From assembly GCA_964505085.1 (NCBI GenBank), contig CAZDGP010000002.1, positions 32,421-96,420 on the forward strand: 64,000 nt of DNA, read 5' to 3'. The notes below the pieces were generated by a model. It was given only the letters and a program-made list of their open reading frames with translations, searched no databases and was not told the origin of the DNA. The translations under genes and the position numbers were made by a program. Source of the DNA: an uncultured Thermoplasmatales archaeon (lineage in GTDB: Archaea; Thermoplasmatota; SW-10-69-26; JACQPN01; CAZDGP01). Shown here one piece after another: positions 5,551-21,520 of the stretch. Within the stretch, counting starts at the first letter, position 1, and each line of letters starts with the position of its first letter.

Positions 5551-7188
5551 TCATGGTGCCGCGGGCAACGTGAACCGGAACGTGGTCCCCTCCCCGCCGG
5601 GAGCGGTCTCGATGCTGACCTCCCCGCCGTAGCTCTCCACGATGCGCTTCACGATGGCGAGGCCGATGCCGGTGCCGTCGGCACCGGACTTGGGGTGGAG
5701 GCGCTGGAAGATGTCGAAGACACGGTCCCTGTGGCGCTCCGGGATGCCCATGCCGTTGTCGGTGATGCGGAAGGCCACCATCCCGTCCTCCTCCCGGGCG
5801 TCCACCTCCACCTCCGGGGGGACGTCGGGGCGGTGGAACTTCAACGCGTTGGAGAGGAGGTTCGTGAGGACCTGCGCCAGGTGCGTGGGGTCCACCTCCA
5901 CCACCGGGAGAGCCTCCTCCACGTGGACGGTGCCGCCGGTGGACTCGATGGTCCCGTCCAGGTCCGCGAGCACCGACGCCAGCACCTGCTCTGGGTCCAC
6001 GAGGCGCGCGTGCCCGTCACCGCTTTGCAACTGCGCGTAGGAGAGCAGGTCCTTCACGATGGCGTCCATGCGCTCGACCCCGTCCCGGGCGAACTCGATG
6101 TACTCCCGCGCCTCCTCCGGGAGGTCCTCGCCGTATCGGCGCTCCAGGAGCTGGACGTAGCTCCCCACGGTGCGCAGGGGGCTGCGGAGGTCGTGGCTCG
6201 CCACGAGGGCGTACCGCTCCAGCTCCTGGTTCGAGACCTCGAGCTCCCGGAGCACCCGGGCGCGTTGCGTAACGTCCGTGGAGACACCCACCACGCGCTC
6301 CACCTCACCGTCGGGACCGAAGACCGGTTGGTACCACGTGTCCAGCACCACGTCCCCCAGGTCGAGCTCCACCCGCAGCTGCTCCCCCTCGAGGGCTGCG
6401 TCCAGAGCGTCGAGAACCTCCGGGAAGTCCGCGTACATCTCGAAGGCGTCGTTCCCCACGGCCTCGTGGGGTTCCAACCCCAACGCCGAGAGGCCGCGTC
6501 CATCGCTGAAGGTGATGGTCCCGCCGGGGTCCAGGGCGAAGAGGATGATGGGCGCGCCCTCCACCACCGTGCGGAGGTGCGCCTGGCTTCGCTCCAGCTC
6601 CTCCTTGGCTTCCCGGGTCTCCTCCATGAGAGCCCGCATGCGCTCCCGACCCCGGGACTGTGCCAGGGTCTCCTCCGCCAGGAGACCCCCCAGCGCCCCC
6701 ACGAAGACGATGTAGAGGCTCTGCAGCGCCCACTCGCCGAGGTTCGCGGTGAGCTCGCCGGCGAAGGCGAGCATGGCGCCGTAGGCCAAACCGTACCCGA
6801 CGCTCACCACGAGGGTCTCCCGGAGGTCGTAGCGGAAGGCGATGGCGGCGATGCTCACGTACCACAGCATGAAGAAGGGGCTCGAGAAGACCCCGGTGGC
6901 GAGGATCCAGAACGTGATGAGGCCCGCGTCCGAGATGGAGGTGAAGTAGCTCGTGAGGACCACGGGGAAGTGCCGGTAGGGCTCGAAGAGGATGGTGCCG
7001 GCGGAGTAGGCCCCCGCGACGCCGATGATGGTGTAGGCGAGCCAGGGGATGGTGCCCGACTTCTCCATGAGGAGGAGGTAGAAGAGGCTGTTCACCGCCA
7101 CCACCGCGAAGCGCACGATGGCTACGTTGCGCTCCGCCGCGTAGACCTTCTCGGCGACGGCCTGGTCATCGAAGGAGGGCGGAGCCAT
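5551..7188 (-). CDS. Sensor histidine kinase (N-terminal multi-TM domain, PAS, HisKA, HATPase_c).
   Basis: HisKA H-box LVASHDLRSPL, N/G boxes LSNALKF..ITDNGMGIP..GTGIGLAIV, and an N-terminal hydrophobic region. Confidence 0.9.
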   Translation of the reverse strand: MAPPSFDDQAVAEKVYAAERNVAIVRFAVVAVNSLFYLLLMEKSGTIPWLAYTIIGVAGAYSAGTILFEPYRHFPVVLTSYFTSISDAGLITFWILATGVFSSPFFMLWYVSIAAIAFRYDLRETLVVSVGYGLAYGAMLAFAGELTANLGEWALQSLYIVFVGALGGLLAEETLAQSRGRERMRALMEETREAKEELERSQAHLRTVVEGAPIILFALDPGGTITFSDGRGLSALGLEPHEAVGNDAFEMYADFPEVLDALDAALEGEQLRVELDLGDVVLDTWYQPVFGPDGEVERVVGVSTDVTQRARVLRELEVSNQELERYALVASHDLRSPLRTVGSYVQLLERRYGEDLPEEAREYIEFARDGVERMDAIVKDLLSYAQLQSGDGHARLVDPEQVLASVLADLDGTIESTGGTVHVEEALPVVEVDPTHLAQVLTNLLSNALKFHRPDVPPEVEVDAREEDGMVAFRITDNGMGIPERHRDRVFDIFQRLHPKSGADGTGIGLAIVKRIVESYGGEVSIETAPGGEGTTFRFTLPAAP

Positions 7189-7257
7189 GGTGATCGACTA
7201 CCGGTCTGGTGGGTGTCCCGGGGAGCAGGAGGAGGGTCCCGGGCCGGCTCCGCGTCG

Positions 7258-8388
7258 TTAGGAGGCGGCGGGGAGCTCCACCGTGAACGTGGTGCCGTCG
7301 GAGCCCGTCTCGAACGTGATGGTACCTTCGTGGGACTCCACGATGCGCCGTGCGATGCTGAGGCCCAAGCCGTCGTTCCCCTCCTGGGTGCTGAAGAAGG
7401 GATCGAAGATCCGGTCCTGGACGTCGGAGGGGATGCCGGGTCCGGAGTCCCGCACGCGGAGCACCGCGCTCCCGTCCTCGGTGTCGGTCTCGAGCACCAC
7501 GCTGCCCTCGCGGCTGCCCACGGCCTCCGTGGCGTTGGTGAGGAGGGCCAGGACCACCTGCTGGACCTGGGGCGTGTTCACGAGCACCGCGGGCGTGGGG
7601 TGGAGGTCCGTCTTCACCTTCACGCCCCGGTCGTCCGCAGGTGCGAAGAGGTCAAGTGCCTCCTCCGCCACCTCCTGCAGATCGCGTTCCTCCCGGTCCT
7701 CGGGGCCGGTGCGGTAGAAGCGCCGGAGGTCCCGGAGGTGCCGGTTGATGCGGTCCACGGCCTCCATGGAGCCCACGGTGGCCTCGTTCACCTGCTCCAT
7801 GAGGTTGGGGAGGTCCGCGTCACCTTCGTCGGCTGCCGCGTTCACGCGGCGTCGGATCTCGAAGAGGTTGTTGCTGATGGTCTCGGTGAAGCTGTTGATC
7901 TCGTTGGCCACGTCGCTCACGAGGGCGCCCATGGTGCTGAGCTTCTCCGTCATGCTGAGCTTCCTGCGGAGCTCCTCCATCTCCCGGGTCGCCTGGTGGC
8001 GCTCCATGGCGTAGCGCATGACGCGGGCCAGGAGGTTCCCCGTGTACTCGCCCTTCACCACGTAGTCCTGGGCGCCCTCCTTCAGGGTGTCCAGCGCCAT
8101 CCGCTCGTCCTCCAGCCCCGTGAGCACCACGATGGGGATGCGGGTCGCGGCGTTCCGCATGCGACGCACGGTGTCGAGGCCGGAGCTGTCGGGGAGGCTC
8201 AGGTCCAGGAGGGCCACGTCGAACTCCCGTTCCGCCACCGCCTGCAGCCCGTCCGCGAGGTTGTCCTCGTGCACCAGGTCGATGCGGAGGTTCTGCACGT
8301 CCTTCAGCTCCTCCTCGATGAGGCGGGCGTCGCCGGGGTTGTCCTCGATCAGGAGCACGTCCATCTCGTCGGTGGTCACGATGTTCAC
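7258..8388 (-). CDS. Hybrid response regulator/histidine-kinase-like protein (REC, then HisKA-like, then HATPase_c).
   Basis: N-terminal receiver (DVLLIEDNPGD..LLDLSLPD..), C-terminal LTNATEA..VRDSGPGIP..GLGLSIARRIV. Confidence 0.85.
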   Translation of the reverse strand: MNIVTTDEMDVLLIEDNPGDARLIEEELKDVQNLRIDLVHEDNLADGLQAVAEREFDVALLDLSLPDSSGLDTVRRMRNAATRIPIVVLTGLEDERMALDTLKEGAQDYVVKGEYTGNLLARVMRYAMERHQATREMEELRRKLSMTEKLSTMGALVSDVANEINSFTETISNNLFEIRRRVNAAADEGDADLPNLMEQVNEATVGSMEAVDRINRHLRDLRRFYRTGPEDREERDLQEVAEEALDLFAPADDRGVKVKTDLHPTPAVLVNTPQVQQVVLALLTNATEAVGSREGSVVLETDTEDGSAVLRVRDSGPGIPSDVQDRIFDPFFSTQEGNDGLGLSIARRIVESHEGTITFETGSDGTTFTVELPAAS

Positions 8389-8393
8389 GTCCT

Positions 8394-8849
8394 TCAGTTG
8401 GGGGGGAGATTCACCTTCTCGAGCCAGAAGCCCTCGATGTACCGGACGAGGTCCATGAACTGGTCGAGGTCGACGGGTTTGGTGATGTAGCAGTTCGCGT
8501 GCAGGTCGTACGCGTTCACGATGTCGGACTCGGCTTCGCTGGTGGTGAGCACCACCACGGGGATGCGGCGGAGGTCGGGGTCGGCCTTCATCTCCGCCAG
8601 GACCTCCCGCCCGTCCTTCTTGGGCAGGTTGAGGTCCAGGAGCACGAGGTCGGGGTGTGGGGCGTCGGTGTACCCGTCGCCCTGCTCGAGGAAGGCCATG
8701 GCCTCCTCGCCGTCGGCGGCCACGTGGAGGTCCAGCGGGAGCTTCCCCTCCGCTAGCGCCTCCTTGGTCAGCCGCACATCACCCGGGTTGTCCTCCACGA
8801 GGAGGATGCATTTCGGTTCCCCTTGTCCCTTCAAGTTGTTCGACCCCAT
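8394..8849 (-). CDS. Single-domain response regulator (CheY-like receiver).
   Basis: [27 protein letters not shown] receiver motifs. 151 aa. Confidence 0.85.
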
Positions 8850-9089: not shown

Positions 9090-9674
9090 ATGATCGAAGA
9101 AGGAAGGAACCCCCAGTCCGTCGAGGCGGGAGCGGAACCCCGCCCGGGGGCTCAAGGATCCTCCGGTTGGCGGAGGGTCCGAGACAGGTTCCTCACCCTC
9201 TTCACACGGCGCATGGGCGAGGGGGGAAGCCACGGCTTCGGGGACGATCACGACGCCCGCTTCCTCGCCGCCCTCACGGACCTCGAACCGGCCGACGCTT
9301 CCGGCAACCTCTCAGCTGCGTTGTGGGACCTGGGTCACGCAGCCGGCACGCACGTGTACGGTGTGCACGTGGTCGAGGATGACCTGGCCGAGGCCCTGGC
9401 GGGTCTCTCCCACCAGGTGGAGGCCACGGGGCTCGGTGTGCTCGAGGAGGTGGACCGGTTCCACCGAAGCGTGGACGTCGAGCTCGAACCATCCCGCGAG
9501 GTGGCGAACGCGTTCCACGGCTGGGTGGACGCGTACGTCGGCGGGCTCCTCGAGGGGAGCATCGCACGCGGGTTCAACGTGAACGTGCATGTGGAGACGC
9601 GGGACGTCCACGTCTTCCACATGGAACTGCAGGGGGGTCCCGAGGGGCCCCAGGAGCTTTCGCATGGTCGGTGA
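9090..9674 (+). CDS. Hypothetical protein, first gene of the pilus/GTPase locus.
   Basis: ATG preceded by a GGGAGGT SD-like sequence 7 nt upstream. The stop overlaps the next start (ATGGTCGGTGA). The C-terminal two-thirds is acidic and protein-like; no recognisable domain. The N-terminal 40 aa is Arg-rich, so the true start may be internal. Confidence 0.45.
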   Translation: MIEEGRNPQSVEAGAEPRPGAQGSSGWRRVRDRFLTLFTRRMGEGGSHGFGDDHDARFLAALTDLEPADASGNLSAALWDLGHAAGTHVYGVHVVEDDLAEALAGLSHQVEATGLGVLEEVDRFHRSVDVELEPSREVANAFHGWVDAYVGGLLEGSIARGFNVNVHVETRDVHVFHMELQGGPEGPQELSHGR

Positions 9675-10056
9675 AGCCAAGGAAAGGTTGGGTCAGATCC
9701 TCGACGGCCATCTGGGGTCAGACGGGGTGCTGGGAACGAGCCTCGTGAGCCGCGACGGCATCCCCGTGCTCTCCCGCTTGACGGAGCGCATGGAGGATAT
9801 GCCCTTCAGCCTCCTCGTGGAGGGCGCCATGGCCGCCACCCTCATGGGTGCGGCCGAGGTGGCGGTGCAGGAGGTGGGTGGCGGTCCTCCCCGCCGTGTC
9901 GTGGTGGAGACCGAGAAGGTGAACATGGTCCTCGTGGGCGTGAGCAACGACCTCATCCTCGTCACGGTGGCGGAGTCCGCCGCTGAGCTCGGGGAGCTGA
10001 TGAGGGCCGTTGGCGTCGCCGCCGAGGACGTGGCGGAGGCGGTGGCGTCAGCGTGA
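9664..10056 (+). CDS. Roadblock/LC7 domain protein (MglB-like).
   Basis: MVGEAKERLGQILDGHLGSDGVLGTSLVSRDGIPVLSRL..SLLVEGAMAATLMGAAE..VNMVLVGVSNDLILVTV is a typical Roadblock/LC7 profile. Translationally coupled to its neighbours. Confidence 0.75.
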   Translation: MVGEAKERLGQILDGHLGSDGVLGTSLVSRDGIPVLSRLTERMEDMPFSLLVEGAMAATLMGAAEVAVQEVGGGPPRRVVVETEKVNMVLVGVSNDLILVTVAESAAELGELMRAVGVAAEDVAEAVASA

Positions 10057-11279
10057 CCCCCCAGGCTTCCGCGGACGCGGTGTCCGCCATGGGCGTGGAG
10101 CAGCTCGATCGACTCATCGCGCCCCTTCCCCGAGGCTCCCGTGTGCTCATCAGCAACGAGCCGGGGGTGGAGGGTGAGCCCTTCCTCTACCAGGCCGCGA
10201 GCCACCACGTGGAGGGCGGAGGCGACGTGGTGTACGTCGTGACGAACCGTCCGCCGGAGAGCATCCTCCGGAGCATGAGCGAGTTCGACCTGGCTCCCGA
10301 TCACGATCACGTGCATTTCATCGACGCGTACTCCCCCGGGCTCGGGCTCACGGGGGACGCGGAGTTCCCCGTCATGGAGCCCTCGAACCCGGGCGCCTTC
10401 GTGGAGGCCGTGGAGGCCGCCGCGGAGAAGTACCCCGACGCGCTCCTCATCGTCGACAGCCTAAGTCACCTCCTGGACCATGGCACCATGGAGGAGGTCG
10501 AGGGCTACCTGCCGCGGCTCGCGTCGGCCATGGGCGTCTTCCAGCTTGCCATCGCGCTCTTCATCGCGTGGCCCTACGAGGAGGACCTCACGGGGTTCCA
10601 CGAGATCTTCGACTCCGTCGTGACCCTCCACGGCGTCGAGGGACGCATCCTGCTCAGCCAGTACTTCCAGGTGGACCGCGCGGACTGGGTGGAGGACCTT
10701 GACACCCGGCCGCGCCTCTACAAAGCTATCCGACCCGGGGGAATCTACGTGTACATCCCGAAGATCGTCATCACGGGCCCGTACAACGCGGGCAAGTCCA
10801 CGTTCGTCAACAGCGTCAGCGATTCAAGCGTCAGCGTGGACCGTCTCGGGACCACGGTGGCCATGGACCACGGTCACGTGGAGGTGGACGGCATCGTGGT
10901 GGACCTCTTCGGCACCCCCGGCCAATCCCGCTTCGACCCCATCCTCGAGACCATCGGGGAGCGGGGTCTCGGCGTCCTCGTCATCGTGGACGCCACCCGT
11001 CCCGACGCCTTCCCCCGAGCCCAGGAGATGCTGGAGGCGTTGTGGCGCTACGGCACCCCGGCCCTCGTGGTGGCGAACAAGCAGGACCTGCCGGGGGCGT
11101 TGACACCCGAGGAGGTCCGGGAGCAACTGGACCTCCCCCCGAACGTGGGGGTCGTCGGTTGCGTGGGCGAGGAGCCCGAGAGCGCCCGGGAGGTGCTCTC
11201 GTCCCTCATCGAGGAGGTGCTGAGCTCCAGCGCCTTCGCTGGAGGCCTGGAGGAGGGTCACGAGGGGGTGGTCGCGTGA
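10053..11279 (+). CDS. Fusion of a degenerate KaiC/RecA-like pseudo-ATPase domain (N-terminal) to a Ras-like small GTPase domain (C-terminal).
   Basis: The N-terminus has the KaiC-like layout (RLIAPLPRGSRVLISNEPGVEGEPF..) but the Walker A is degenerate, with no GK[ST]. The C-terminus has canonical G1 GPYNAGKST, a switch-I Thr, G3 DLFGTPGQ and G4 NKQD. The GTG start overlaps the upstream stop (GTGA). Confidence 0.8.
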   Translation: MTPQASADAVSAMGVEQLDRLIAPLPRGSRVLISNEPGVEGEPFLYQAASHHVEGGGDVVYVVTNRPPESILRSMSEFDLAPDHDHVHFIDAYSPGLGLTGDAEFPVMEPSNPGAFVEAVEAAAEKYPDALLIVDSLSHLLDHGTMEEVEGYLPRLASAMGVFQLAIALFIAWPYEEDLTGFHEIFDSVVTLHGVEGRILLSQYFQVDRADWVEDLDTRPRLYKAIRPGGIYVYIPKIVITGPYNAGKSTFVNSVSDSSVSVDRLGTTVAMDHGHVEVDGIVVDLFGTPGQSRFDPILETIGERGLGVLVIVDATRPDAFPRAQEMLEALWRYGTPALVVANKQDLPGALTPEEVREQLDLPPNVGVVGCVGEEPESAREVLSSLIEEVLSSSAFAGGLEEGHEGVVA

Positions 11280-12022
11280 GCGGCAACGACGGGTCCCTCG
11301 TTGGCCTCGGTGTACCCCGGCTGGACGAGCTTCTGGGCGGCGGCATCCCCGGCGGCACCACGGCCCTCGCCTACGGTCCCCCGTACTGCGGGAAGACCCT
11401 CCTGGGGCGGTTGTTCCTCCTGGATGGGCTCCACCGCGGTGAGGCCGTCCTCATCGTCCTCACCGACGACACCGCAGAGGATGTGGCCGAGGAGCTCACG
11501 CGCATGGACAGCGAGTTCCCGCGCTTCGAGGACCAGGGCCTCGTGCACTACGTGGACCTCTACAGCTTCCTGCTGGGCCCCGACGTGGCCAAGCGGAAGA
11601 ACGCGGAGTACGTGGAGGGCCCCACCGACCTGAACACGGCGCTCATGGCGGTGAACGCGGCGGAGCGACGCATCCTCAAGGCCACCGAGAAGCACAGGCT
11701 CCTCTTCGACAGCGTGAGCACCCTCATGGTGCACAACAACGCCCAGACGGCCTTCCGGTTCCTCCAGCTATTCCTGGGGCGGGCCCGGCAGGCCGGCGCC
11801 ACGAACCTCCTGCTCCTGGAGCGGGGGGTCCACGAGGAGAACGAGGTGGAGCTTGCCAAGACCCTTAGCCGGGGCCTCATCGAGATGCGTACCGACGAGG
11901 ACAAGCACCAGCTCCGTGTGCAGGGCTTCCGGTCGAACCAGAACACCTCCTGGGTGGACTACACCTTCGACGACACGAGCTTCGATGTCACAGGGAGCTT
12001 CGCGGCGGGTAGAATCAAGTAG
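11276..12022 (+). CDS. KaiC/FlaH-like ATPase (RAD55/KaiC family), intact Walker A.
   Basis: VSGNDGSLVGLGVPRLDELLGGGIPGGTTALAYGPPYCGKTLLG..LIVLTDD. The GTG start overlaps the upstream stop. The track ORF 11042-12022 over-extends into the previous gene. Confidence 0.8.
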   Translation: MSGNDGSLVGLGVPRLDELLGGGIPGGTTALAYGPPYCGKTLLGRLFLLDGLHRGEAVLIVLTDDTAEDVAEELTRMDSEFPRFEDQGLVHYVDLYSFLLGPDVAKRKNAEYVEGPTDLNTALMAVNAAERRILKATEKHRLLFDSVSTLMVHNNAQTAFRFLQLFLGRARQAGATNLLLLERGVHEENEVELAKTLSRGLIEMRTDEDKHQLRVQGFRSNQNTSWVDYTFDDTSFDVTGSFAAGRIK

Positions 12023-12103
12023 TTGATATACCGGGATAGCCGAAAGGAGCCACGCGGGCGAGTTCTATCGTCTCGAGGCGATGGCCCTCGGCCCACGAAC
12101 ACC

Positions 12104-13390
12104 ATGCATCCCCACCAACCCAGGAAGGACCGGCGGCACCGCGACGCCCAACGCTTCAGCGCCACCGACGGGGCCGTCTCGGACATCGTGGGGGAGATCC
12201 TCATGACGGCGATCTTCATCGTCGTCTTCTCGGCAGCTGGCGTCACGCTCCTCACCCGCGCCCCCCCGGAGGACCTCGTCCACGCCGACATCCAGGCGGA
12301 GAACCGGTCCACCCTGCGCCTCGTCCACGTGGGCGGGGAGCGTTTGGACGTGGACGGGTCCGACATCATCCTGGACCTCGACGGCACCGAGGAGCGCCAC
12401 GCGCTCTCGACGTACGCTTACGCGTTCCAGGATGACTCACCGGATCATTGGGACCCCGCGGAGCGCCTGTGCGTCTCCTGCGAGTTCCCCGGCCAGGTCA
12501 TCCTCTCCGTGGAGGTGGTGACGGAGCGCCAGACCGTGATGTCGTGGCTTGGTCGTTACGAGCCGGTGAACGCCACCGGCGGCGTCTTCGACCCCGGCTT
12601 CGCCTACGAGGACGTGGGCAACGATGCCCTCTACGTGGAGGGCACGGACGCGAGCATCGCGAACGCCGACGTGCACGATGGCACGTACACGGTGAGCAAC
12701 GCGAGCCGCGGCCTCGTCATCCCCCCGTCCGTGGGGGACATCCAGCGCTCCGGCGGGCCCGTGGAGTTCATCGCCGGTGGCAACGTTCGGATCGACGTGG
12801 ACCTCACGTCCGGGGACCGGCGCGTGCTCCTCCGGAGCTCCGGGGGCAACGTCTCGGCCTTCGGCGTCACCGTCTCCAGCGCGCGGGAGCTCCTGGTGCA
12901 GGCGCCCTCGGGTCACGTGGACGTCCACAGCTCCACCATCGCCTCCACGGAAGAGCACGTGCGCGTGGACGCCGGCACCGGCATCGACGCCGACGGTTCC
13001 ACCTTCACCCTCACCACCGGGAAGCACATCGAGCTCGTGACAGCCGCGGGGGACCTCCGGGCGAAGGGCGCCACCCTCCAGGCGAGCAACGAGCACGTGG
13101 TCCTCCAGGTGAACGGCACCGGGAACGTCCTCGCGAACGCGTCCACCCTCCAGGCTGAGAAGCGCCTGGAGCTCACCACGGGCGACGGGGACCTCTGGAT
13201 CAGGAACGGCACCGTCACCTCCGAGGATGAGTTCATCCGGTTCGACGTGGGCGCGTCCACGAACACCGCCCACGTGGAGGGCCTGGACATCAGCGAACCG
13301 AACGACGACGGAGCCGTCTCGTTGTGCCCCAGCGGCGCCAACGTGGACGGAACCCCCGACACCGGGAGCGTGGACAACACATGCAGCTGA
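12104..13390 (+). CDS. Pilin-like protein with an archaeal type IV pilin N-terminal domain (class III signal peptide).
   Basis: N-terminus ..RDAQRFSATDG|AVSDIVGEILMTAIFIVVFSAAGVTLL matches the Pilin_N (RAVSPVIGVILMVAITV-like) hallmark. 428 aa, Thr/Ser/Gly/Asp-rich beta-type sequence. Confidence 0.7.
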   Translation: MHPHQPRKDRRHRDAQRFSATDGAVSDIVGEILMTAIFIVVFSAAGVTLLTRAPPEDLVHADIQAENRSTLRLVHVGGERLDVDGSDIILDLDGTEERHALSTYAYAFQDDSPDHWDPAERLCVSCEFPGQVILSVEVVTERQTVMSWLGRYEPVNATGGVFDPGFAYEDVGNDALYVEGTDASIANADVHDGTYTVSNASRGLVIPPSVGDIQRSGGPVEFIAGGNVRIDVDLTSGDRRVLLRSSGGNVSAFGVTVSSARELLVQAPSGHVDVHSSTIASTEEHVRVDAGTGIDADGSTFTLTTGKHIELVTAAGDLRAKGATLQASNEHVVLQVNGTGNVLANASTLQAEKRLELTTGDGDLWIRNGTVTSEDEFIRFDVGASTNTAHVEGLDISEPNDDGAVSLCPSGANVDGTPDTGSVDNTCS

Positions 13391-15348
13391 CCCCCGTCCC
13401 ATCCCGGCTCGGTCCACGTGACGGTGCCGTGTCGGACGTCATCAGCAACATCCTCATGGTGGCCATCACGGTGCTCCTCATCGGGAGCCTCGCCCTCTCC
13501 ATCCCCCTGGTCCTCGGGGATCCCGGGGAGGCCCTCAACGCTGACCTGCGCGCCTCCAACACCGGCACCTCCATGCGCGTCGCCCACGTGGGCGGGGAGC
13601 ACGTGGACGAGGGCCAGATGCGGATCTCCGTCACACGGGACGGGTCCACCACCACCGAGCCTCTGAGCGCCTTCGCCGGGTGCGTGACGGGCGGGGACGG
13701 CCTGAGCGATGGCCTCTGGTCCGTGGGCGAGACCCTGGACGTCACGTGCCGGTACGCGGGCCAGAACACCACCATCAGCGCCGTGATCCTCGTGGGTTAC
13801 GACGCCATCCAGGTGGACTGGTCCGGCGCCGTCATCCTGGGGACCGGGAGCCCCGGGAACACCGCGCCCGTGGCCGACGCCAACGGGCCCTACACCCTGG
13901 ACGAGGGGAGCTCCAAGACCCTCGACGGGACGAACACCACGGACGACGACGGCGACCCCCTCACGGTCTCCTGGACCTTCGTGGGGGACAACCAGGGCGC
14001 CACCCTCACCGACGAGGACACCCTCACCCCCACCTTCACCGCGCCCGGGAACGTGGACGGGGACAAGATCGTGACGGTGAAGCTCACCGTGGACGACGGG
14101 AACATCACCGACACCGACCGGACCACCGTCACCATCCTGGACGCCGACGGAAGCGGGAACGCGCCTCCGGAGGCGGACGCGGGCGGGCCCTACAGCGTGA
14201 ACGAGGAGGAGTCCATCCTCCTGGACGGGACGGGAAGCGACGACCCCGACGGCGACAGCCTCACCTTCGAGTGGACCATCACCGGTGACGCCCACGGGGG
14301 TGTCCTCACCGACGCCACCACCGCCACACCCACCTTCGAGTCCACCACGAACGTGGACGGGGACAAGTCCGTCACGGTGCGGGTGAACGTGAGCGACGGG
14401 AACGGCGGCACCGACAGCGACCAGACCACCGTCACCATCGTGGACGCCGACGGGTCCGGCGGGGGCGTCAGCCACACCTACGTCGATTGCCCCATGAGCG
14501 CCACCACCGGCACGGTCTCGAACTGCAGCAACGCGCGGTCCGACTCCGACGGCGGCGCCTCCGCGGTCCTCACCGAGGAATCCACCAGCACCTCCACCAC
14601 GAGCAAGTACGACGCCGACACCCTCGTGAGCTCCACGTCCGTCACCGACCCCTCCAACGTGCTCGTCTCCGACGACGCCCGGGCGGACTTCACGAGCACC
14701 TCCAGCACGCTCGAGGTCACGGGCTTCGACCTGCCCGACGACGCCACGGGCGTGACCAGCGTCGTCATCGGGTTCGAGGCTCGGAAGGACCAGGGCGGCG
14801 GGCAGAACCCCACGCTGGAGCTCACGTACGATGTGGGCGGCACCGCGGGGTCCACGGGCCTCTCCACCACCGTCTCCACCACGTCCGACGCGGCCCACAC
14901 GGTGAACGTCACCGGGGACCGATCCTGGACCGTCGCCGACGTGGAGGACATCTCCCTCACCCTCGAGATGACGGACCAGCAGAACCGGGTCGCGGAGGTG
15001 GACCACGTCTTCGTCACCGTCCGCACCGAGAGCGGGGACGAGTACAACCTCCTCGTGGAGGGGAGCTTCTCCAGCGTGCCCGACGGCACCACGCACCTCC
15101 TGCAGATCCGGTACCACATCGACAGCGACGCCGACGCCGACACCTTCGACGTGGAGGTGTGGGACGGGTCCACCTGGAACGACCGCGGGGACCTCACGTC
15201 CACGAGCTTCGACACCTTCGAGTACACCTTGACCGCCGGCGAGTGGCAAAGCGGCTTCCCGCAGGTCCGCTTCGTGGACAAGATCCCAGATGACCCCGAC
15301 GGCGCGCATTCCCTCACCATCGATTACCTCCGGGTGGAATCCTCATGA
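13381..15348 (+). CDS. Large pilin-like adhesin: Pilin_N-type N-terminus plus two PKD-like repeats and a Thr/Ser-rich region.
   Basis: MQLTPVPSRLGPRDG|AVSDVISNILMVAITVLLIG. Two repeats of ..A(D/N)AGGPY(T/S)(L/V)(D/N)E..LDGT.S.D.DGD.L...W.. TVTI(L/V)DADGSG look PKD-like. The start overlaps the previous stop (ATGCAGCTGA). Confidence 0.75.
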   Translation: MQLTPVPSRLGPRDGAVSDVISNILMVAITVLLIGSLALSIPLVLGDPGEALNADLRASNTGTSMRVAHVGGEHVDEGQMRISVTRDGSTTTEPLSAFAGCVTGGDGLSDGLWSVGETLDVTCRYAGQNTTISAVILVGYDAIQVDWSGAVILGTGSPGNTAPVADANGPYTLDEGSSKTLDGTNTTDDDGDPLTVSWTFVGDNQGATLTDEDTLTPTFTAPGNVDGDKIVTVKLTVDDGNITDTDRTTVTILDADGSGNAPPEADAGGPYSVNEEESILLDGTGSDDPDGDSLTFEWTITGDAHGGVLTDATTATPTFESTTNVDGDKSVTVRVNVSDGNGGTDSDQTTVTIVDADGSGGGVSHTYVDCPMSATTGTVSNCSNARSDSDGGASAVLTEESTSTSTTSKYDADTLVSSTSVTDPSNVLVSDDARADFTSTSSTLEVTGFDLPDDATGVTSVVIGFEARKDQGGGQNPTLELTYDVGGTAGSTGLSTTVSTTSDAAHTVNVTGDRSWTVADVEDISLTLEMTDQQNRVAEVDHVFVTVRTESGDEYNLLVEGSFSSVPDGTTHLLQIRYHIDSDADADTFDVEVWDGSTWNDRGDLTSTSFDTFEYTLTAGEWQSGFPQVRFVDKIPDDPDGAHSLTIDYLRVESS

Positions 15349-16730
15349 AGTCCAACCGCCATGCACGATCCCGCAGCCTCCGAACCGACGACAGCGGCGT
15401 CGCCATCGTGGTGGGCGCCGTCCTCCTGGTGGGGCTCTTGGTGGCGAGCCTCGCCACCGTGAACCAGCTCTACGTTCCCAAGTGGGAGGAGGACAAGGAG
15501 GCCGCGCACATGCAGGAGGTGATGAGCCAGTTCGCGGCGCTCAAGGCCGTGCTGGACCAGCAGGCGAGCAACCGCACCGCGGGTACGGTGGCGAACCCCA
15601 TCAGCCTGGGGACCCAGTCCTCCGGTTTCTTCAGCCTCCCTGACGTGGCGGATTCCCTCCGGTTCAAGAAGGGCACGACCTCGGTGGAGGTGGAGTCACC
15701 GAACCTCCTCGTGCTCCAGGCGGACGGGACGAGCACCAGTGGCTCCCAGGAGGAGTGGGAGGGCGTGGAGGAGAACACCACGGTGGAGGACGTGGAGGAG
15801 ATCCGTTCCTTCCGCCTCCGCATCGACTGCATCGGGGTCCTCCCCTCGGGTTGTGCGAACGACGATGGCGACTCCATCACGGTGGAGGTTCGGGAGGCCG
15901 GCGGAAGCTTCGCCGGGGACTTCCGCGTGATGGTCAAGGACTACCCCAGCGGGTACACCGTGAACTTCCGCGTGCGGAACGCCGACGGCACGGTGGTGTA
16001 CGACCAGGGGGAGTCCTACTTCAACCAGGACGAGCAGGAGCCCTACTGGGTGAACCTCCTCCAGGATGACTTCCGCTTCGACCGGGTGCTCGACTCGGCG
16101 GAGACGCCCTTCAACGTGTCCCTGGTGGAATCCGGCCTCACGGGGGAGTACAGCCTCACGTACGTGCAAAAGACCGAGGATGGCGACAGCGTTCTCGTGG
16201 GCGGTGGGGGGGACGCCATCGCCAACTACACCCGGACGTTCAACGGTGGACGCCTCATGTACGAGTCGTCCAACCGCCACTTCCCGGACCAGACCCTCAT
16301 CCTGGAGAACGGTGGCCTCATCCTCACGCAGTCGGGGCGCTCCGTGTTCCGCGTGAGCCCCGACTTCAGCGTGAACCTCGTGGGGAACCGCACGGACCTG
16401 CGTCTCACCGTGCCCGTGACCACGGGTCCCGAGTCGGGGCTCAGCGGCTCCCGCACCTACACGGTGGAGACCACGCCCCAGATCACGCGGTCCCTCCAGG
16501 GGCAGACCGCCCGGTACTACGTGAACATCACCACGGAGTACGCCGACGTGTGGGCCGACATGTGGGAGGAGGAGCTCCGGGGTGCCGGCCTGGACCCCGC
16601 GTGGTACGACGTCACCGTCACGCCCACCCAGGCTCAACTCATGTTGGAGGGATCCTCCACCGAACCGGGGTACCGGGACATCACCGTGAGGTTCGGTCAG
16701 GGAAGCGTCAAGGCGGTGGTGACGGGATGA
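15345..16730 (+). CDS. Pilin-like protein (hydrophobic class-III-type N-terminus), large extracellular beta-rich domain.
   Basis: ..RSLRTDDSG|VAIVVGAVLLVGLLVASLATVNQ. ATGA overlap with the upstream gene. 461 aa. Confidence 0.65.
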   Translation: MKSNRHARSRSLRTDDSGVAIVVGAVLLVGLLVASLATVNQLYVPKWEEDKEAAHMQEVMSQFAALKAVLDQQASNRTAGTVANPISLGTQSSGFFSLPDVADSLRFKKGTTSVEVESPNLLVLQADGTSTSGSQEEWEGVEENTTVEDVEEIRSFRLRIDCIGVLPSGCANDDGDSITVEVREAGGSFAGDFRVMVKDYPSGYTVNFRVRNADGTVVYDQGESYFNQDEQEPYWVNLLQDDFRFDRVLDSAETPFNVSLVESGLTGEYSLTYVQKTEDGDSVLVGGGGDAIANYTRTFNGGRLMYESSNRHFPDQTLILENGGLILTQSGRSVFRVSPDFSVNLVGNRTDLRLTVPVTTGPESGLSGSRTYTVETTPQITRSLQGQTARYYVNITTEYADVWADMWEEELRGAGLDPAWYDVTVTPTQAQLMLEGSSTEPGYRDITVRFGQGSVKAVVTG

Positions 16731-16847: not shown

Positions 16848-18755
16848 ATGGCTGATGATGACAACGAAGGGAAGGGGAGCAAGCGTGACGGTGATGGAGA
16901 CGAGCCCCAGAAGCCGACGATGCGCCAGGTGGGGGAGACGGACATCTCCCCCATGAAGGCCCCCGAGGAATCCGCACGTTCCCCCGATGCACCTCTCGAC
17001 CTTGCGGACACCGACACGAAGGACTTCCTGAAGGACCTGGAGCGCAAGCAGAAGGAGCGCCTGGAGCAGAAGCTGGCGGAAGCCCGGGAGATGGAGCGCC
17101 GGGCGAAGAATCTCGTGAAGAAGGTGCAGGAGCAGCAGAAGTTCCGCCGGGACTACGAGGCGCACTCGGCGTACGTGGAACAGCTCGCGCCGGAGCTGGG
17201 CCTCGATCCCACGCGCCCCGTCACGGAGATCCCGGACCTCGAGGGCACGGACCTCACCCAGGTGGAGTTCACCACCATGGTGGAGGGCCGCAGCTACGTG
17301 CGACTCGTGTACGACGAGACACGGAACCGCCACCTCTACCAGGTCATCGAACCCGACCTCACGAGCAGCGAGGAGGAGGTGCTGGAGTTCCTCCGGGACA
17401 CCCTCGTGCGCACCCTCGACGGTCGCCACGACCCCGACGAGGACTGGGAGCAGTACCTCGTGGACGCCATCGAGCGCGCCATCGTCGACCACAGCATCCT
17501 CGTGGACGAGGTGAGCAAGGAGCGCCTCGAGTACTACCTCATCCGGGACTTCCTCGGGTACGGCCCCATCGACGTGATGATGAAGGACCCCATGATCGAG
17601 GACATCAGCTGCGACGGTCCCGGGATCCCCATCTACGTCTTCCACCGGCATCACGAGAGCATCAAGAGCAACGTGGTCTTCGAGGACGAGCGGACGCTGG
17701 ACAGCTTCGTCATCCGCCTGGCCCAACGCTCGGGGAAGCACATCAGCCTGGCCGAGCCCGTGCTCGATGCAACCCTCCCCGACACGAGCCGGCTCCAGGC
17801 CACCCTGAGCAAGGAGGTCACGCCCCGGGGCTCGAGCTTCACCATCCGGCGTTTCCGCGCCGACCCTCTCACGCCCCCGGACCTCATGCGTTTGGGCACG
17901 CTGAACGCTCCCATGGCCGCCCTCATGTGGTTCGCCATGGAGCACGGCAGCAGCATGATCTTCGCCGGCGGCACCGCGTCCGGGAAGACCACGACGTTGA
18001 ACAGCGTGAGCCAGTTCATCCCGCCGGCGAAGAAGGTGGTGAGCATCGAGGACACCCGCGAGATCAACCTCCAGCACGAGAACTGGATCGCGGGCGTCAC
18101 GCGGGAGGGCCTGGAGGGAACCCAGGGCCAGGCCACGAAGGTGGACATGTTCCGCCTCCTCACGGCGGCGCTCCGGCAGCGCCCCGAGTACCTCCTCGTG
18201 GGTGAGGTGCGGGGTGCGGAGGCCTTCACGCTCTTCCAGGCCATGGCCACGGGCCACGCCACGTACAGCACGCTCCACGCCGACAGCGTGCAGTCCGCGG
18301 TCTACCGGTTGGAGAACGAACCCATCAACATCCCCCGCCTCATGCTCCAGACCCTCGACGCCGTCGCCGTGCAGGTGCAGGTTCGGGTCCGGGGCCAGAT
18401 GGTGCGCCGCATCAGCGAGTTCGTGGAGATCGTGGACATCGACCCCGACAGCGGCGACCTCCTCACGAACACCGTGTTCAAGTGGGATCAGGGATCGGAC
18501 ACGTACAAGTACATGGGGAAGAGCGTCATCCTCGAGCAGATCATGGACAAGATCAACGTGTCCGCCCACGAGATCGAGGAGGAGTGGAACGACCGCACCC
18601 TCGTCCTCGAGTGGATGATGGAGAAGGGCATCCGCCACATCACGGACGTGGCCAACGTCCTCTCCAGCTACTACAGCAACCCCGACGACCTCATGGCGAA
18701 GGTGCGGTCGAGCATGGGTCACGAGACCAAGGAGGGGACCGCCCGTGGGGCTTAA
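16848..18755 (+). CDS. Type IV pilus/archaellum assembly ATPase (FlaI/TadA/VirB11 family) with an about 100-aa charged N-terminal extension.
   Basis: Walker A GGTASGKTTTLNS plus SIEDTREINLQHENWIA and other FlaI/TadA hallmarks. SD-like GAGGGGTGA 8 nt upstream, and a TATA-like GATTTATGG at about 16777. Confidence 0.9.
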   Translation: MADDDNEGKGSKRDGDGDEPQKPTMRQVGETDISPMKAPEESARSPDAPLDLADTDTKDFLKDLERKQKERLEQKLAEAREMERRAKNLVKKVQEQQKFRRDYEAHSAYVEQLAPELGLDPTRPVTEIPDLEGTDLTQVEFTTMVEGRSYVRLVYDETRNRHLYQVIEPDLTSSEEEVLEFLRDTLVRTLDGRHDPDEDWEQYLVDAIERAIVDHSILVDEVSKERLEYYLIRDFLGYGPIDVMMKDPMIEDISCDGPGIPIYVFHRHHESIKSNVVFEDERTLDSFVIRLAQRSGKHISLAEPVLDATLPDTSRLQATLSKEVTPRGSSFTIRRFRADPLTPPDLMRLGTLNAPMAALMWFAMEHGSSMIFAGGTASGKTTTLNSVSQFIPPAKKVVSIEDTREINLQHENWIAGVTREGLEGTQGQATKVDMFRLLTAALRQRPEYLLVGEVRGAEAFTLFQAMATGHATYSTLHADSVQSAVYRLENEPINIPRLMLQTLDAVAVQVQVRVRGQMVRRISEFVEIVDIDPDSGDLLTNTVFKWDQGSDTYKYMGKSVILEQIMDKINVSAHEIEEEWNDRTLVLEWMMEKGIRHITDVANVLSSYYSNPDDLMAKVRSSMGHETKEGTARGA

Positions 18756-19629
18756 CCGGTACCAGCGCTTCGCCTACCGCCTCTTCGGCTCCAGCCTGGA
18801 GGAGACCGCGCAATCGAACGAACGGCTCCGCAGCAGCCTCCAGAAGGCCCACATCTACATGCGCCCCGAGGTGTACCTCAGTTACGGGTACATGAACATG
18901 CTCGTCACCTTCGTGGCGAGCCTCGTGCTCGTCCTCCTGGCGGGCATCCTCTTCGCCGCCGGCGTCCTCCCCCTCTCGCCGGCCATCGTCGCCTTCATGA
19001 TCCCCGTGCCGCTGCTCCTGGCGGCCATCGTCTACCTCATCACGTACGTGGTGCCGGACCTCCGGGCGAGCGTCCGGGCCACGGACATCGACGCGAAGGT
19101 GCCCTACGCCTTGAACTACATCGCAACCATGGCCAACGCCGGGGTCACCCCCGACGAGATCTTCGACAGCCTCAGCCGCCAACCCATCTACGGGGAGGTG
19201 GCCAACGAGGCCGCGTGGATCAGCCGGGACCTTCGTCTCCTCGGGAAGGACACCGTGACGGCGATGAACGACGCTATCGACCGCAGCCCCAGCATCAAGT
19301 GGCAGGACCTCCTCCAGGGCGCCATCGCCACCCTCACGAGCGGCGGCAGCCTCAAGGACTACTTCCTCGCGAAGAGCGACCAGTTCATCCAGGAGAACCG
19401 CCGGGAGCAGGTGCAGTTCATGGAGAGCCTGGGCGTCATCGCCGAGAGCTTCGTCACCGTCGTGGTGGCCGCCCCGCTCTTCTTCATCGTGCTCCTCACC
19501 GTCATGACCACCTTCGGGACCGGCGACAACAGCGGGTTCACCCTGGGGTACTTCCTCATCCTCGTGCTTCTACCCATGAGCCAGGCCGGGTTCGCAGCCA
19601 CCATCAAGCTCATGACACCGGAGGTGTAA
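18745..19629 (+). CDS. TadC/FlaJ-like membrane protein, part 1 (T2SSF domain).
   Basis: Overlaps the ATPase stop. A cytoplasmic T2SSF-like domain (PYALNYIATMANAGVTPDEIFDSLS..) is flanked by TM helices. Confidence 0.85.
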   Translation: MGLNRYQRFAYRLFGSSLEETAQSNERLRSSLQKAHIYMRPEVYLSYGYMNMLVTFVASLVLVLLAGILFAAGVLPLSPAIVAFMIPVPLLLAAIVYLITYVVPDLRASVRATDIDAKVPYALNYIATMANAGVTPDEIFDSLSRQPIYGEVANEAAWISRDLRLLGKDTVTAMNDAIDRSPSIKWQDLLQGAIATLTSGGSLKDYFLAKSDQFIQENRREQVQFMESLGVIAESFVTVVVAAPLFFIVLLTVMTTFGTGDNSGFTLGYFLILVLLPMSQAGFAATIKLMTPEV

Positions 19630-19633
19630 CGGG

Positions 19634-21520
19634 ATGCGCACCGACTGGCTCAAGTACCTCGACCTGGAGTCGAAGCAGAAGCGCCTCGTGGAGCGGAACA
19701 GGGAGCTCTACGAGAAGTTCGTGTTCTACCCGCTCCTCGCGGGCCTCATCATCGCCACGGCGGGAACCCTCGTGGGGATCGTGAACTACCGCGGCACCGC
19801 GCCCGTGGGGTTCTGGGGGTTCGCCCTGGGCATCGTGCTCGTCACCATGAGCATGGGCCTCAGCATGCCCCTGGAGACCTTCCGGGTGCTGAGCAGCCAG
19901 ATCACCGGCGGCAGCCGCTACGACACGCGGCGGTTCTGGAAGCGGCTCAAGACCACCGGCGTCACGCTCCACATCCTCACGCTTCTGGGCGCGTTCTTCC
20001 TGCTGCTGGCGTTCATGAGCCGCGTGGACCTCGTGAGCTTCGGCGAGGTGAGCTACCTGCTCCTCCTCCGCCTGCTCCTCGTCTACGCGCTGGCCCTCTT
20101 CCTCACCGTGGGGTACGGCCTCTACCTCACGCTCCGCACGCCCCTGGAGCGCCGGAGCTTCTTCGGCTTCGAGAACCTCTTCTTCTACCTGGGGGTTGCC
20201 GGGAGCGTGGTCTTCGGCTTCGCTGCTGCCACCCTCGCCACCGGGGTGATCCCCATCGAGGGGACCCTGGGTCTACGCCCCACGGACGCCCCCGTGGTGC
20301 TCCTCACCGCCTCCACCCTGGCAGGGTTCGCCCTCTACATGGGGCGGTCGCCACCTACGCTCAAGATCCTGCTCACGGACGAGCGCGAGTACTACGCTGG
20401 CCTGGGAGGCACCGGGGGCCGCCGCAGCGTGCTCCTCCCCGCCATCATGGCCTTCACCCTGCTCTTCATCGTCGTCCTCAGCATCTTCGTCTTCGGCGTG
20501 GGTGTCGTGGGGCTCTTCGAGGAGATCCCTGCCAACACCGTGCTCTTCGGCGTCATCGGGTTCATCATCCTGGGGATGGCGGGGATCGTCGTCGTCACGG
20601 TGGTCATGAGCCGGAGCGAGGACACCGGCACCCTCTACAAGACCCGCCGGAGCACGGAGGACCGGAAGGAGATCGCGGTGCAGGCCGGCAGCGCCGCCTT
20701 CGCCAGCATCTTCTTCCTCATCGCGGGGTACCTCTACACGGGCCGCACGCTCCTGGGCTTCCCCAGCCAGCGGTGGCTCGACTTCTTCAGCTTCGGTCTC
20801 CTGGCGGCCCTGGGCCCCTACGGGTTCTACGTGGCTGCCCGGCGCAAGCGCGTGAAGGACCTGGAGGCACGCTTCCCGGACTTCCTCCGGGACCTCGCCG
20901 CCAGCAACCGCGCGGGTCTCACCCTCACGAACTCCGTGACCATCGCAAGCCACGGGGAGTACGGGGCTCTCACGCCCGAGATCGTGAAGATGGCGGACCA
21001 GCTCAGCTGGAACGTTCCCTTCACCGAGGCGCTGGACCGCTTCGCGGAACGCGTGCAGACGCCCCTCGTGGAGCGTGCCGTGAGCCTCATCATGGAGGCG
21101 GACAGCGCCGGAGGCAACGTCACGGACGTGCTCGTGGCCGCCGCCAAGGACGCTCGGGAGATCAAGAACCTCGAGAACGAGCGCCGCACCACCATGGTGA
21201 TGTACACCGCCATCATCTACATCACGTTCGCGGTGTTCCTCGGGGGTGCCGCCGTGCTCTACGGGACCTTCATCCCCCAGCTCGTGGCCACGGGCACCGC
21301 CGTGAAGGCCGCAGGCATCTCGGGCTTCGGACCCATCAGCTTCAACATCCTCACCCTCGCCGAGTACCGGACGTTCTACTACCTCTCGGCCCTCGTGCAG
21401 GCTGTGGGCAACGGGTTCGTCGCAGGCCTCATCGAGAGCGGAAGCGCCCTGGCGGGGATGCGCCACAGCTTCATCATGGTGGCCATCACGTGGATCACGT
21501 TCACCGTGGTGCTCCTCTAG
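19634..21520 (+). CDS. TadC/FlaJ-like membrane protein, part 2 (many TM helices plus a second T2SSF domain).
   Basis: 628 aa, at least 9 predicted TM helices, with the T2SSF-like segment RFPDFLRDLAASNRAGLTLTNSVTIAS..SLIMEADSAGGNVTDVL. Confidence 0.85.
   Translation: MRTDWLKYLDLESKQKRLVERNRELYEKFVFYPLLAGLIIATAGTLVGIVNYRGTAPVGFWGFALGIVLVTMSMGLSMPLETFRVLSSQITGGSRYDTRRFWKRLKTTGVTLHILTLLGAFFLLLAFMSRVDLVSFGEVSYLLLLRLLLVYALALFLTVGYGLYLTLRTPLERRSFFGFENLFFYLGVAGSVVFGFAAATLATGVIPIEGTLGLRPTDAPVVLLTASTLAGFALYMGRSPPTLKILLTDEREYYAGLGGTGGRRSVLLPAIMAFTLLFIVVLSIFVFGVGVVGLFEEIPANTVLFGVIGFIILGMAGIVVVTVVMSRSEDTGTLYKTRRSTEDRKEIAVQAGSAAFASIFFLIAGYLYTGRTLLGFPSQRWLDFFSFGLLAALGPYGFYVAARRKRVKDLEARFPDFLRDLAASNRAGLTLTNSVTIASHGEYGALTPEIVKMADQLSWNVPFTEALDRFAERVQTPLVERAVSLIMEADSAGGNVTDVLVAAAKDAREIKNLENERRTTMVMYTAIIYITFAVFLGGAAVLYGTFIPQLVATGTAVKAAGISGFGPISFNILTLAEYRTFYYLSALVQAVGNGFVAGLIESGSALAGMRHSFIMVAITWITFTVVLL

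Follow-up and report, generated by a model that had tools for sequence, protein, structure and literature searches.

Does a single archaeal protein join a dead KaiC-like ATPase to a small GTPase, and what would such a protein control? The question is raised by an open reading frame (ORF) at 10053-11279 in a 64,000-nucleotide stretch of contig CAZDGP010000002.1 from an uncultured Thermoplasmatales archaeon, hereafter the window. The original prediction had read this ORF as a KaiC/RecA-like domain without its P-loop fused to a canonical Ras-like GTPase. Here we describe its product as an inactivated KaiC-like (iKaiC) domain joined to an MglA-type small GTPase, encoded between a Roadblock/LC7 protein and a second KaiC-like protein that we call KaiC2. 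The identity of these parts is near certain; the complex that they form and its output are what we infer from them.

An iKaiC domain and an MglA-type GTPase in one protein

Pfam finds both families within the one 408-residue product. KaiC (PF06745) matches residues 14-173 with 30.8 bits, above its gathering score of 26.6, at residues 237-362 the Arf, Ras and MMR_HSR1 families pass theirs, and NCBIfam adds its small_GTP model TIGR00231 (57.7 bits, cut-off 42.5). An identical product is already recorded in an NCBI assembly. More than 100 database homologues of 385-400 residues are collinear with it across both domains, and a scan of one genome per prokaryotic species located 477 loci that encode the same architecture. 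AlphaFold2 folds the single chain into a compact two-domain model, with a mean predicted local distance difference test score (pLDDT) of 92.2 and a predicted template modelling score (pTM) of 0.89. Together these results bear out the predicted union of a KaiC-type domain with a small GTPase. In the databases the family goes under generic names (GTP-binding protein, ADP-ribosylation factor-like protein, ATPase domain-containing protein, KaiC, hypothetical), and a profile search of PDB chains returned none matched by both domains at once.

That a frameshift, a missed stop codon or a mis-assembly merged two separate genes is excluded. The reading frame runs through without interruption, hundreds of full-length collinear homologues come from independent assemblies, the motif PGG-x-x-V-Y-I-P-K at the junction is conserved among them, and the single-chain model is confident. 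Nothing speaks for such an artefact save a chimeric ORF at a related locus (L022, 2598-4199). In that ORF, of 534 residues, the N-terminal domain and a truncated GTPase run into the rear half of the KaiC-like partner. Its origin seems to be an internal deletion or an assembly error, not a true triple fusion, and for this reason it was not used as Rosetta-stone evidence of contact between the fusion and its partner. Membership in a known anti-phage defence system was likewise dropped, since the PADLOC models gave zero matches to the four operon proteins tested.

A profile built from 39 family members places the N-terminal domain in the KaiC/RecA superfamily, with the PF06745 fold. It matches the hexameric RecA-superfamily ATPase PH0284 at E = 3.5e-28, KaiC at E values of about 1e-11 to 1e-25, and ArlH/FlaH at 3e-6. 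HMMER alignment sets the family motif PGVE(A/G)E-x-F over PGTGKTIF of PH0284 and VTNRxP over ALEEHP, which leaves the domain with neither the Lys/Thr of Walker A nor the catalytic Glu pair. Where an active KaiC-family ATPase has GxxGxGK[ST] and a Glu pair after beta-2, the protein of the window has EPGVEGE and TNR. The loss of the P-loop had been predicted, and the homologues agree: position 40, that of the Walker A Lys, is Glu or Asp in 38 of the 39 sequences, and P37 and F44 are invariant. The acidic residue spans both major clades; the loss of Walker A and catalytic residues is ancestral and common to the whole family. Judged by these residues, the domain is unable to bind or hydrolyse ATP in the normal way. 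An apparently intact Walker A in the Methanoperedens clade, GGIPKGKS, was set aside as the KaiC-family motif LGGGIPxGS that precedes beta-1; the true site there reads QPGVEGE.

The domain retains a Walker-B-like hhhhDSLS motif and an invariant Trp. Three residues before this Trp, at position 209, 38 of the 39 N-terminal domains have Lys or Arg, a basic residue that is not conserved at the matching position of the partner. It falls where KaiC has its trans-acting Lys/Arg finger, a mapping that depends on an uncertain local alignment. An exhaustive phmmer search of 1.84 billion cluster representatives with the N-terminal domain only gave 122 matches. The strong ones were nearly all of 360-415 residues with the GTPase attached, and the short ones mostly stop mid-domain, as fragments would. 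A stand-alone dead KaiC domain was therefore rejected as a candidate, the search having returned almost only fusions.

The C-terminal domain carries the features of a Ras-superfamily small GTPase, namely G1, the G2 threonines T267 and T268, a catalytic Gln (Q291) and the G4 motif NKQD; the G1, G2 and G4 motifs quoted in the original prediction were confirmed at exact coordinates (Table 1). The description of the domain as canonical Ras and of DLFGTPGQ as a canonical G3 did not hold. HMMER aligns fGtPGq of the fusion to WDIGGQ of Arl3, and the Asp of the DxxGQ found in Ras, Arf and Rab proteins corresponds to Gly287, which is invariant in the family together with T288 and G290; P289 is invariant in one alignment, and Q291 nearly so. 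At G2, which reads LGTTVA, T268 is invariant and T267 invariant or nearly so, depending on the alignment. GTPGQ in G3 and Thr-Thr in G2, with Thr replacing the intrinsic Arg finger, are signatures of MglA groups 2-5 (PMC4316618), so we assign the domain to the MglA type and not to canonical Ras. A Roadblock partner with an Asp-Gly pair, described below, is a further feature of these groups, within which the euryarchaeal group 4 is probably the place of the fusion. The family departs from them in size, with 408 residues and an additional N-terminal domain against a single domain of 150-240 residues. Mean column identity is 58% in the C-terminal domain, against 47% in the N-terminal one.

Between the two domains the family conserves the sequence PGG-x-x-V-Y-I-P-K-I-V-V-T-G, with no exception at P236 and K237 and hardly any at G229/G230. 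In the AlphaFold secondary structure a single strand, residues 230-241, connects the KaiC-like sheet without a break to GTPase beta-1. This continuous strand and the high pTM suggest that the two domains form a rigid unit in the model rather than beads on a string.

A conserved trio and its genomic settings

To place the fusion in its context we compared 83 non-redundant loci, whose ORFs were searched with the proteins of the window and in which pilus genes were counted within 10 kb. The three genes are strictly adjacent in 71 of them, in two gene orders, and the remaining loci are mostly partial contigs. The order KaiC-like, fusion, Roadblock is found in 44 loci, of Methanoperedens, ANME-2 (anaerobic methanotrophic archaea), Archaeoglobaceae, Methanocellales and others, none of which carries a pilin, PilB or PilC gene. 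The order of the window (Roadblock, fusion, KaiC-like) is found in 27, and 20 of these carry such a gene; pilus linkage amounts to 23 of the 83 loci overall. The conserved unit is the three-gene module, and its link to pili is lineage-specific. A second, independent pilus linkage is present at L031 (6082-11931), where the fusion is preceded directly by PilB-PilC-PilC and followed by Roadblock; the divergent subfamily encoded at this locus has about 13 residues inserted ahead of the final GTPase helix.

Unbiased clustering of neighbours in the KaiC-fusion-Roadblock clade placed rpS19e (27/48), a PDCD5-like gene for a double-stranded DNA-binding protein (31/48) and CysRS (25/48) downstream of the trio. 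Examples of the rpS19e/PDCD5-like arrangement are L052 11875-12666 and L004 7190-7949. Three distant Thermoplasmatota loci show the linkage to rpS19e as well, and a position beside this gene may thus be ancestral. The closest homologues of the fusion, with 40-57% identity, come from metagenome-assembled genomes (MAGs) of Thermoplasmatota, and the genome scan found further carriers among Methanoperedens, ANME-2, other Methanosarcinales, Archaeoglobaceae, Methanocellales, Alkanophaga and Hydrothermarchaeota; MAGs assigned to Archaeoglobus veneficus are among them. The family is ancient and widespread in archaea. Several of the MAG records behind L008, L011, L022, L024, L031 and L065 bear titles such as Proteobacteria bacterium, Halobacteriales archaeon and Nanoarchaeota archaeon, and are probably mis-binned or mislabelled assemblies.

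The Roadblock gene, which was overlooked when the fusion and its KaiC-like neighbour were first recognised, adjoins the fusion in 72/83 loci. Its product matches Robl_LC7 with 29.8 bits (cut-off 23), and its likely start is the ATG at 9664, the mechanically called ORF opening at 9589. Both junctions of the fusion gene, with the Roadblock stop on one side and the KaiC2 start on the other, are four-nucleotide GTGA overlaps of a stop with a GTG start, which points to translational coupling. An R-D-G motif is invariant among 36 Roadblock orthologues, and an Asp-Gly pair is conserved in the MglB proteins that are coupled to MglA groups 2-5 (PMC4316618). In one homologue of 527 residues (P0184) the KaiC-like domain, GTPase and Roadblock are naturally fused in a single chain. 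The Roadblock protein is the expected partner of the GTPase of the fusion. At 11 loci a V4R protein, of a small-molecule-binding family, is encoded between Roadblock and the fusion or beside the trio (for example L004 9488-10000 and L005 1014-1526), and may supply the trio with a ligand input.

KaiC2, which adjoins the fusion in 76/83 loci, had been predicted to be an intact KaiC/FlaH-like ATPase. It is indeed KaiC-like over its full length: the KaiC family of Pfam matches with 87.5 bits (DUF7504 and DUF7090 also match), its profile finds KaiC in the PDB at E = 3e-32, and the same 248-residue gene is called at NCBI. The hhalign comparison with the N-terminal domain of the fusion (99.8%, E = 7e-28, 214 columns) identifies it, at the level of sequence, as a full-length paralogue of that domain. 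Its assignment to ArlH/FlaH failed, with 22.5 bits against a cut-off of 215 for ArlH (NF052589) and 28.4 against 194 for the FlaH subfamily PRK06067. We rejected ArlH as the identity of either KaiC-like unit, both lying below the equivalog cut-offs in a locus that is not an archaellum. Nor is an intact active site typical of the family, in which no KaiC2 orthologue keeps the catalytic Glu-Glu pair. Even the GKT of the window is atypical: 67/76 orthologues lack Ser/Thr after GK, most of them reading GPP(F/M)xGKE, in which Glu takes the place of the Ser/Thr that usually coordinates Mg, and nine have the canonical form. The family retains the Gly and Lys of Walker A, a Walker-B-like DSxST motif, an invariant Arg (Arg161) in SNxQTxFRFL and an invariant His (His186) in GMH.

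In the window, the trio region heads a tightly packed same-strand operon together with type IV pilus genes (Table 1). Class III pilins, a T2SSE ATPase and a T2SSF/TadC platform mark it as an archaeal type IV pilus locus, and the same set is present at L001 and L003, with the three pilin-like genes in the same order and the ArlJ/TadC platform similarly split. Pfam finds no match to archaellin or ArlF/G at the locus, and the pilus ATPase scores 401.6 bits against the FlaI model of NCBIfam, under its cut-off of 550. Because of these results and the low ArlH score of KaiC2, we regard the machine as a pilus and not an archaellum. In the second pilin-like protein, immunoglobulin-like (Ig) domains come after an archaeal class III signal/Pilin_N region, which suggests a pilus-displayed adhesin, and the second platform protein carries about 290 extra N-terminal residues.

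The operon opens with a gene (9090-9674) whose product matches nothing in Pfam, NCBIfam or PADLOC. By phmmer, its homologues lie upstream of Roadblock in seven related Thermoplasmatota-type loci (L001, L008, L009, L010, L012, L014 and L022); it is a clade-specific accessory gene, and its product may be a fourth component of the module. Transcribed divergently from the operon are three two-component genes (5551-8849), a possible input to the trio. Of the 28 loci with the gene order of the window, 20 have kinase-like genes no further than about 2 kb away, and REC genes flank L001 and L003. Two long ORFs of 931 residues (5695-8490, plus strand) and 798 residues (12913-15309, minus strand) run antisense to real genes; both are shadow ORFs typical of 70% G+C DNA, not genes, and the G+C content of the window is about 69%.

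Table 1 Features of the fusion locus, in coordinates of the window
Feature	Coordinates	Strand	Evidence
PAS histidine kinase with N-terminal membrane region	5551-7188	-	Pfam
REC-kinase hybrid	7258-8388	-	Pfam
Receiver protein, stand-alone	8394-8849	-	Pfam
194-residue ORF opening the operon; 11-nucleotide overlap with Roadblock start	9090-9674	+	no family match
Roadblock/LC7 (MglB-like) protein, 130 residues	9664-10056	+	Robl_LC7
Fusion gene, iKaiC-like domain and MglA-type small GTPase, 408 residues	10053-11279	+	GTG start
Pseudo-ATPase (iKaiC) domain, residues 1-233	10053-10751	+	Pfam KaiC, profile matches
Degenerate Walker A EPGVEGE (for GxxGxGK[ST]); Lys position is Glu40	10158-10178	+	HMMER alignment to PH0284
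VTNRPP at the catalytic Glu-Glu position (ALEEHP in PH0284)	10239-10256	+	alignment, column counts
Junction GIYVYIPKIVIT, residues 230-241; single predicted beta-strand from KaiC-like domain to GTPase beta-1	10740-10775	+	AlphaFold
MglA-type small GTPase domain, residues 234-408	10752-11276	+	Pfam, TIGR00231, motifs
G1 GPYNAGKS	10776-10799	+	sequence
G2 TT (T267/T268)	10851-10856	+	sequence
G3 GTPGQ	10911-10925	+	sequence
G4 NKQD	11076-11087	+	sequence
KaiC2, KaiC-like paralogue, 248 residues	11276-12022	+	KaiC Pfam, PDB profile, hhalign; GTG start
Walker A GPPYCGKT of KaiC2; Glu-Glu position reads DD	11375-11398 (Walker A)	+	sequence
Pilin-like gene 1 (Pilin_N)	12023-13390	+	Pfam
Pilin-like gene 2 (Pilin_N and two PKD/Big-type Ig domains), 674 residues	13324-15348	+	Pfam
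Pilin-like gene 3 (DUF7289)	15345-16730	+	Pfam
ArlI/PilB-family type IV pilus assembly ATPase, 635 residues	16848-18755	+	T2SSE 125 bits (Pfam)
ArlJ/TadC-like platform gene 1, matching the N-terminal half of ArlJ	18745-19629	+	T2SSF
ArlJ/TadC-like platform gene 2, matching the C-terminal half of ArlJ	19634-21520	+	T2SSF

A candidate switch and its alternatives

We give a probability of roughly 55% to a composite reading in which Roadblock would time a GTP switch, and the pseudo-ATPase rigidly attached to this switch would pair with KaiC2 to gate the ArlI-like pilus ATPase. Its steps are set out here in order of decreasing confidence. The Roadblock protein, probably as a dimer, would bind the G domain and set its GTP/GDP state as MglB does for MglA, a step to which the agreement of motifs and synteny and the triple fusion P0184 point. 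The pseudo-ATPase and KaiC2 would assemble into a mixed RecA-type oligomer, in which the conserved Lys/Arg of the dead domain may serve the nucleotide site of its partner; the heteromeric ring suggested in the original prediction is plausible. KaiC, PH0284 and ArlH are all hexamers, and the two units keep different residues, a basic one in the finger region of the dead domain and cis-acting nucleotide-binding ones in KaiC2. The rigid junction would then relay the nucleotide state of the G domain to the oligomer, whose docking on the ArlI-like ATPase, after the manner of ArlH on ArlI, would gate pilus assembly. The neighbouring two-component proteins would provide the input signal.

Several observations weigh against this composite reading. 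The mapping of the N-terminal basic residue on the Lys/Arg finger of KaiC is uncertain, and KaiC2 falls far below the ArlH model. As most KaiC2 orthologues read GKE and none has the Glu-Glu pair, the picture of a live subunit beside a dead one fits the window better than the family and may not generalise; by its residues KaiC2 may be a nucleotide sensor rather than an ATPase. Given the 44 pilus-free loci, the ancestral output may not have been a pilus. Two family members, P0175 and P0156, keep the two-domain scaffold and have lost the G1 and G3 motifs, so that both of their domains look dead, and such decay in a few members argues that GTP cycling is not universally required.

The absence of pilus genes from those 44 loci also favours the main alternative, in which the trio is a general cellular switch, acting in polarity, division, the envelope or a translation-linked process, with the pilus recruited secondarily, adjacent by chance or at most one of its outputs. 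Its place just upstream of rpS19e and the PDCD5-like gene fits such a role, the three distant Thermoplasmatota loci suggest that this pilus-unrelated location is ancestral, and CirA, a KaiC-like protein, has broad regulatory effects (PMC10983859). Ribosomal clusters, however, are common positional neighbours without functional meaning, and neighbour clustering showed no alternative effector conserved beside the trio. In the clade of the window, 20 of 27 loci hold the trio and the pilus genes in one packed same-strand operon, and L031 repeats the linkage in a different order. We consider a general switch unlikely.

Less probable still is a conservon-like arrangement, in which the GTPase would be a branch of two-component signalling and the KaiC-like domains passive scaffolds without a nucleotide-dependent ring. 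The GTPGQ and Thr-Thr motifs are of the same type as those of CvnD (MglA group 2), kinase and receiver genes adjoin the operon here and in many related loci, the ORF at 9090-9674 lies upstream of Roadblock where CvnC would lie, and KaiC2 deviates at Walker A and the catalytic positions. Yet the kinases are encoded on the other strand and the KaiC-fusion-Roadblock clade does not conserve them, Pfam and NCBIfam gave no DUF742/CvnC match, and the Walker A Gly/Lys, DSxST, Arg161 and His186 kept by KaiC2 argue for a maintained nucleotide site.

A broader claim, that a GTPase cycle timed by a Roadblock GAP/GEF and wired mechanically through a pseudo-ATPase into a heteromeric KaiC/RecA ring controlling an ArlI-family ATPase amounts to an unrecognised class of archaeal switch, is a tentative one that we hold to be doubtful. 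If true, the GTP state would control ring assembly or nucleotide occupancy and thereby an ArlI-family secretion ATPase, in the first direct structural coupling of a TRAFAC GTPase with a RecA-like ATPase, the two oldest P-loop switch families. It would be an archaeal counterpart to the control of bacterial pili by MglA, and would predate the split of Thermoplasmatota from Archaeoglobi and Methanosarcinales-related lineages. Regulation of archaeal type IV pili is almost unknown beyond the archaellum, and the trio offers a three-protein candidate that makes definite biochemical predictions: it should bind GTP, hydrolyse it faster with Roadblock, form hetero-oligomers and dock on the pilus ATPase. 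Its carriers are mostly uncultured and environmentally important (Thermoplasmatota, Methanoperedens/ANME-2, Alkanophaga), and surface structures matter for syntrophy and attachment. KaiC-like proteins have been proposed as major archaeal signalling hubs (Makarova, Galperin and Koonin 2017; Galperin et al. 2018) on thin experimental evidence, and the dead KaiC-GTPase family is a possible route of input to them.

Relation to known systems

The components of the module are of kinds already known; what we could not find described are the fusion and the conserved trio. The original prediction had not recognised the architecture from described regulators, and the literature searched in full text contained no description of an MglA-type GTPase joined to a dead KaiC domain, nor of the trio, with the limit that Makarova, Galperin and Koonin 2017 might list the architecture. 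In the supplementary tables of a pilus census, only unrelated GTPases were among the matches listed. KaiC-family ATPases have been noted at archaeal pilus loci, and Roadblock proteins are frequently encoded at type IV pilus loci of various kinds (PMC4858521). In a survey of small GTPases (Wuichet and Sogaard-Andersen 2015; PMC4316618), sequences longer than 240 residues were left out, and the euryarchaeal MglA group 4 was reported to have no conserved neighbours. The fusion family, at about 390 residues, was thus dropped by design, and because an abundant fused form was filtered out by this length cut-off, archaeal small GTPases are incompletely counted and their evolution incompletely described. 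In discussions of the ancestry of eukaryotic Arf/Rag-type systems, MglA-type GTPases that have Roadblock partners figure as relatives of those ancestors.

Among systems with a KaiC fold, ArlH (FlaH) is similar in being a single KaiC/RecA fold of about 230-250 residues encoded with an ArlI-family ATPase and an ArlJ-like platform, and in our working model the likeness would extend to binding ATP while hydrolysing little or none of it and to docking that depends on the oligomer. ArlH, which is KaiC-like, forms an ATP-binding hexamer and interacts with ArlI in a state-dependent way (bioRxiv 10.1101/2021.03.19.436134; PMC8978795). Here, by contrast, KaiC2 and the N-terminal domain score below the ArlH equivalog cut-offs, archaellins and ArlF/G/C/D/E are absent from the locus, and the KaiC-like units are two paralogues, of which one is dead and bears a GTPase. 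The REC-iKaiC and iKaiC-HalOD1 fusions described previously (PMC5847659) also join a KaiC domain with lost catalytic motifs to a signalling domain among signal-transduction genes, whereas the partner in our family is a small GTPase. Elongator Elp4/5/6 and the RAD51 paralogue complexes, which are mixed RecA-like rings or complexes with inactive subunits, provide a structural analogy only: they belong to eukaryotes, have nucleic acids or tRNA as substrates and include no GTPase.

On the GTPase side, the actinobacterial conservon (CvnA-D: kinase, Roadblock, DUF742 and GTPase) shares only its Roadblock-GTPase pair with the trio. Identity with a conservon was rejected, as DUF742 is missing and the kinases lie outside the operon, on the opposite strand, and are clade-specific. 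The MglA/MglB pair of bacteria governs the activity and polarity of type IV pili. MglA itself is reported to activate type IV pili in Myxococcus (PMC7668184). Like MglA/MglB of Myxococcus xanthus and Thermus thermophilus and like CvnD/CvnB, the archaeal module pairs a GTPase that lacks the canonical G3 Asp and bears GTPGQ and the G2 Thr-Thr of groups 2-5 with an adjoining Roadblock protein that has the Asp-Gly pair. Unlike group 1 MglA, the G domain of the fusion lacks the intrinsic Arg finger, and it differs from these systems in being permanently joined to a pseudo-ATPase of about 230 residues with a KaiC fold and accompanied by a KaiC-like paralogue.

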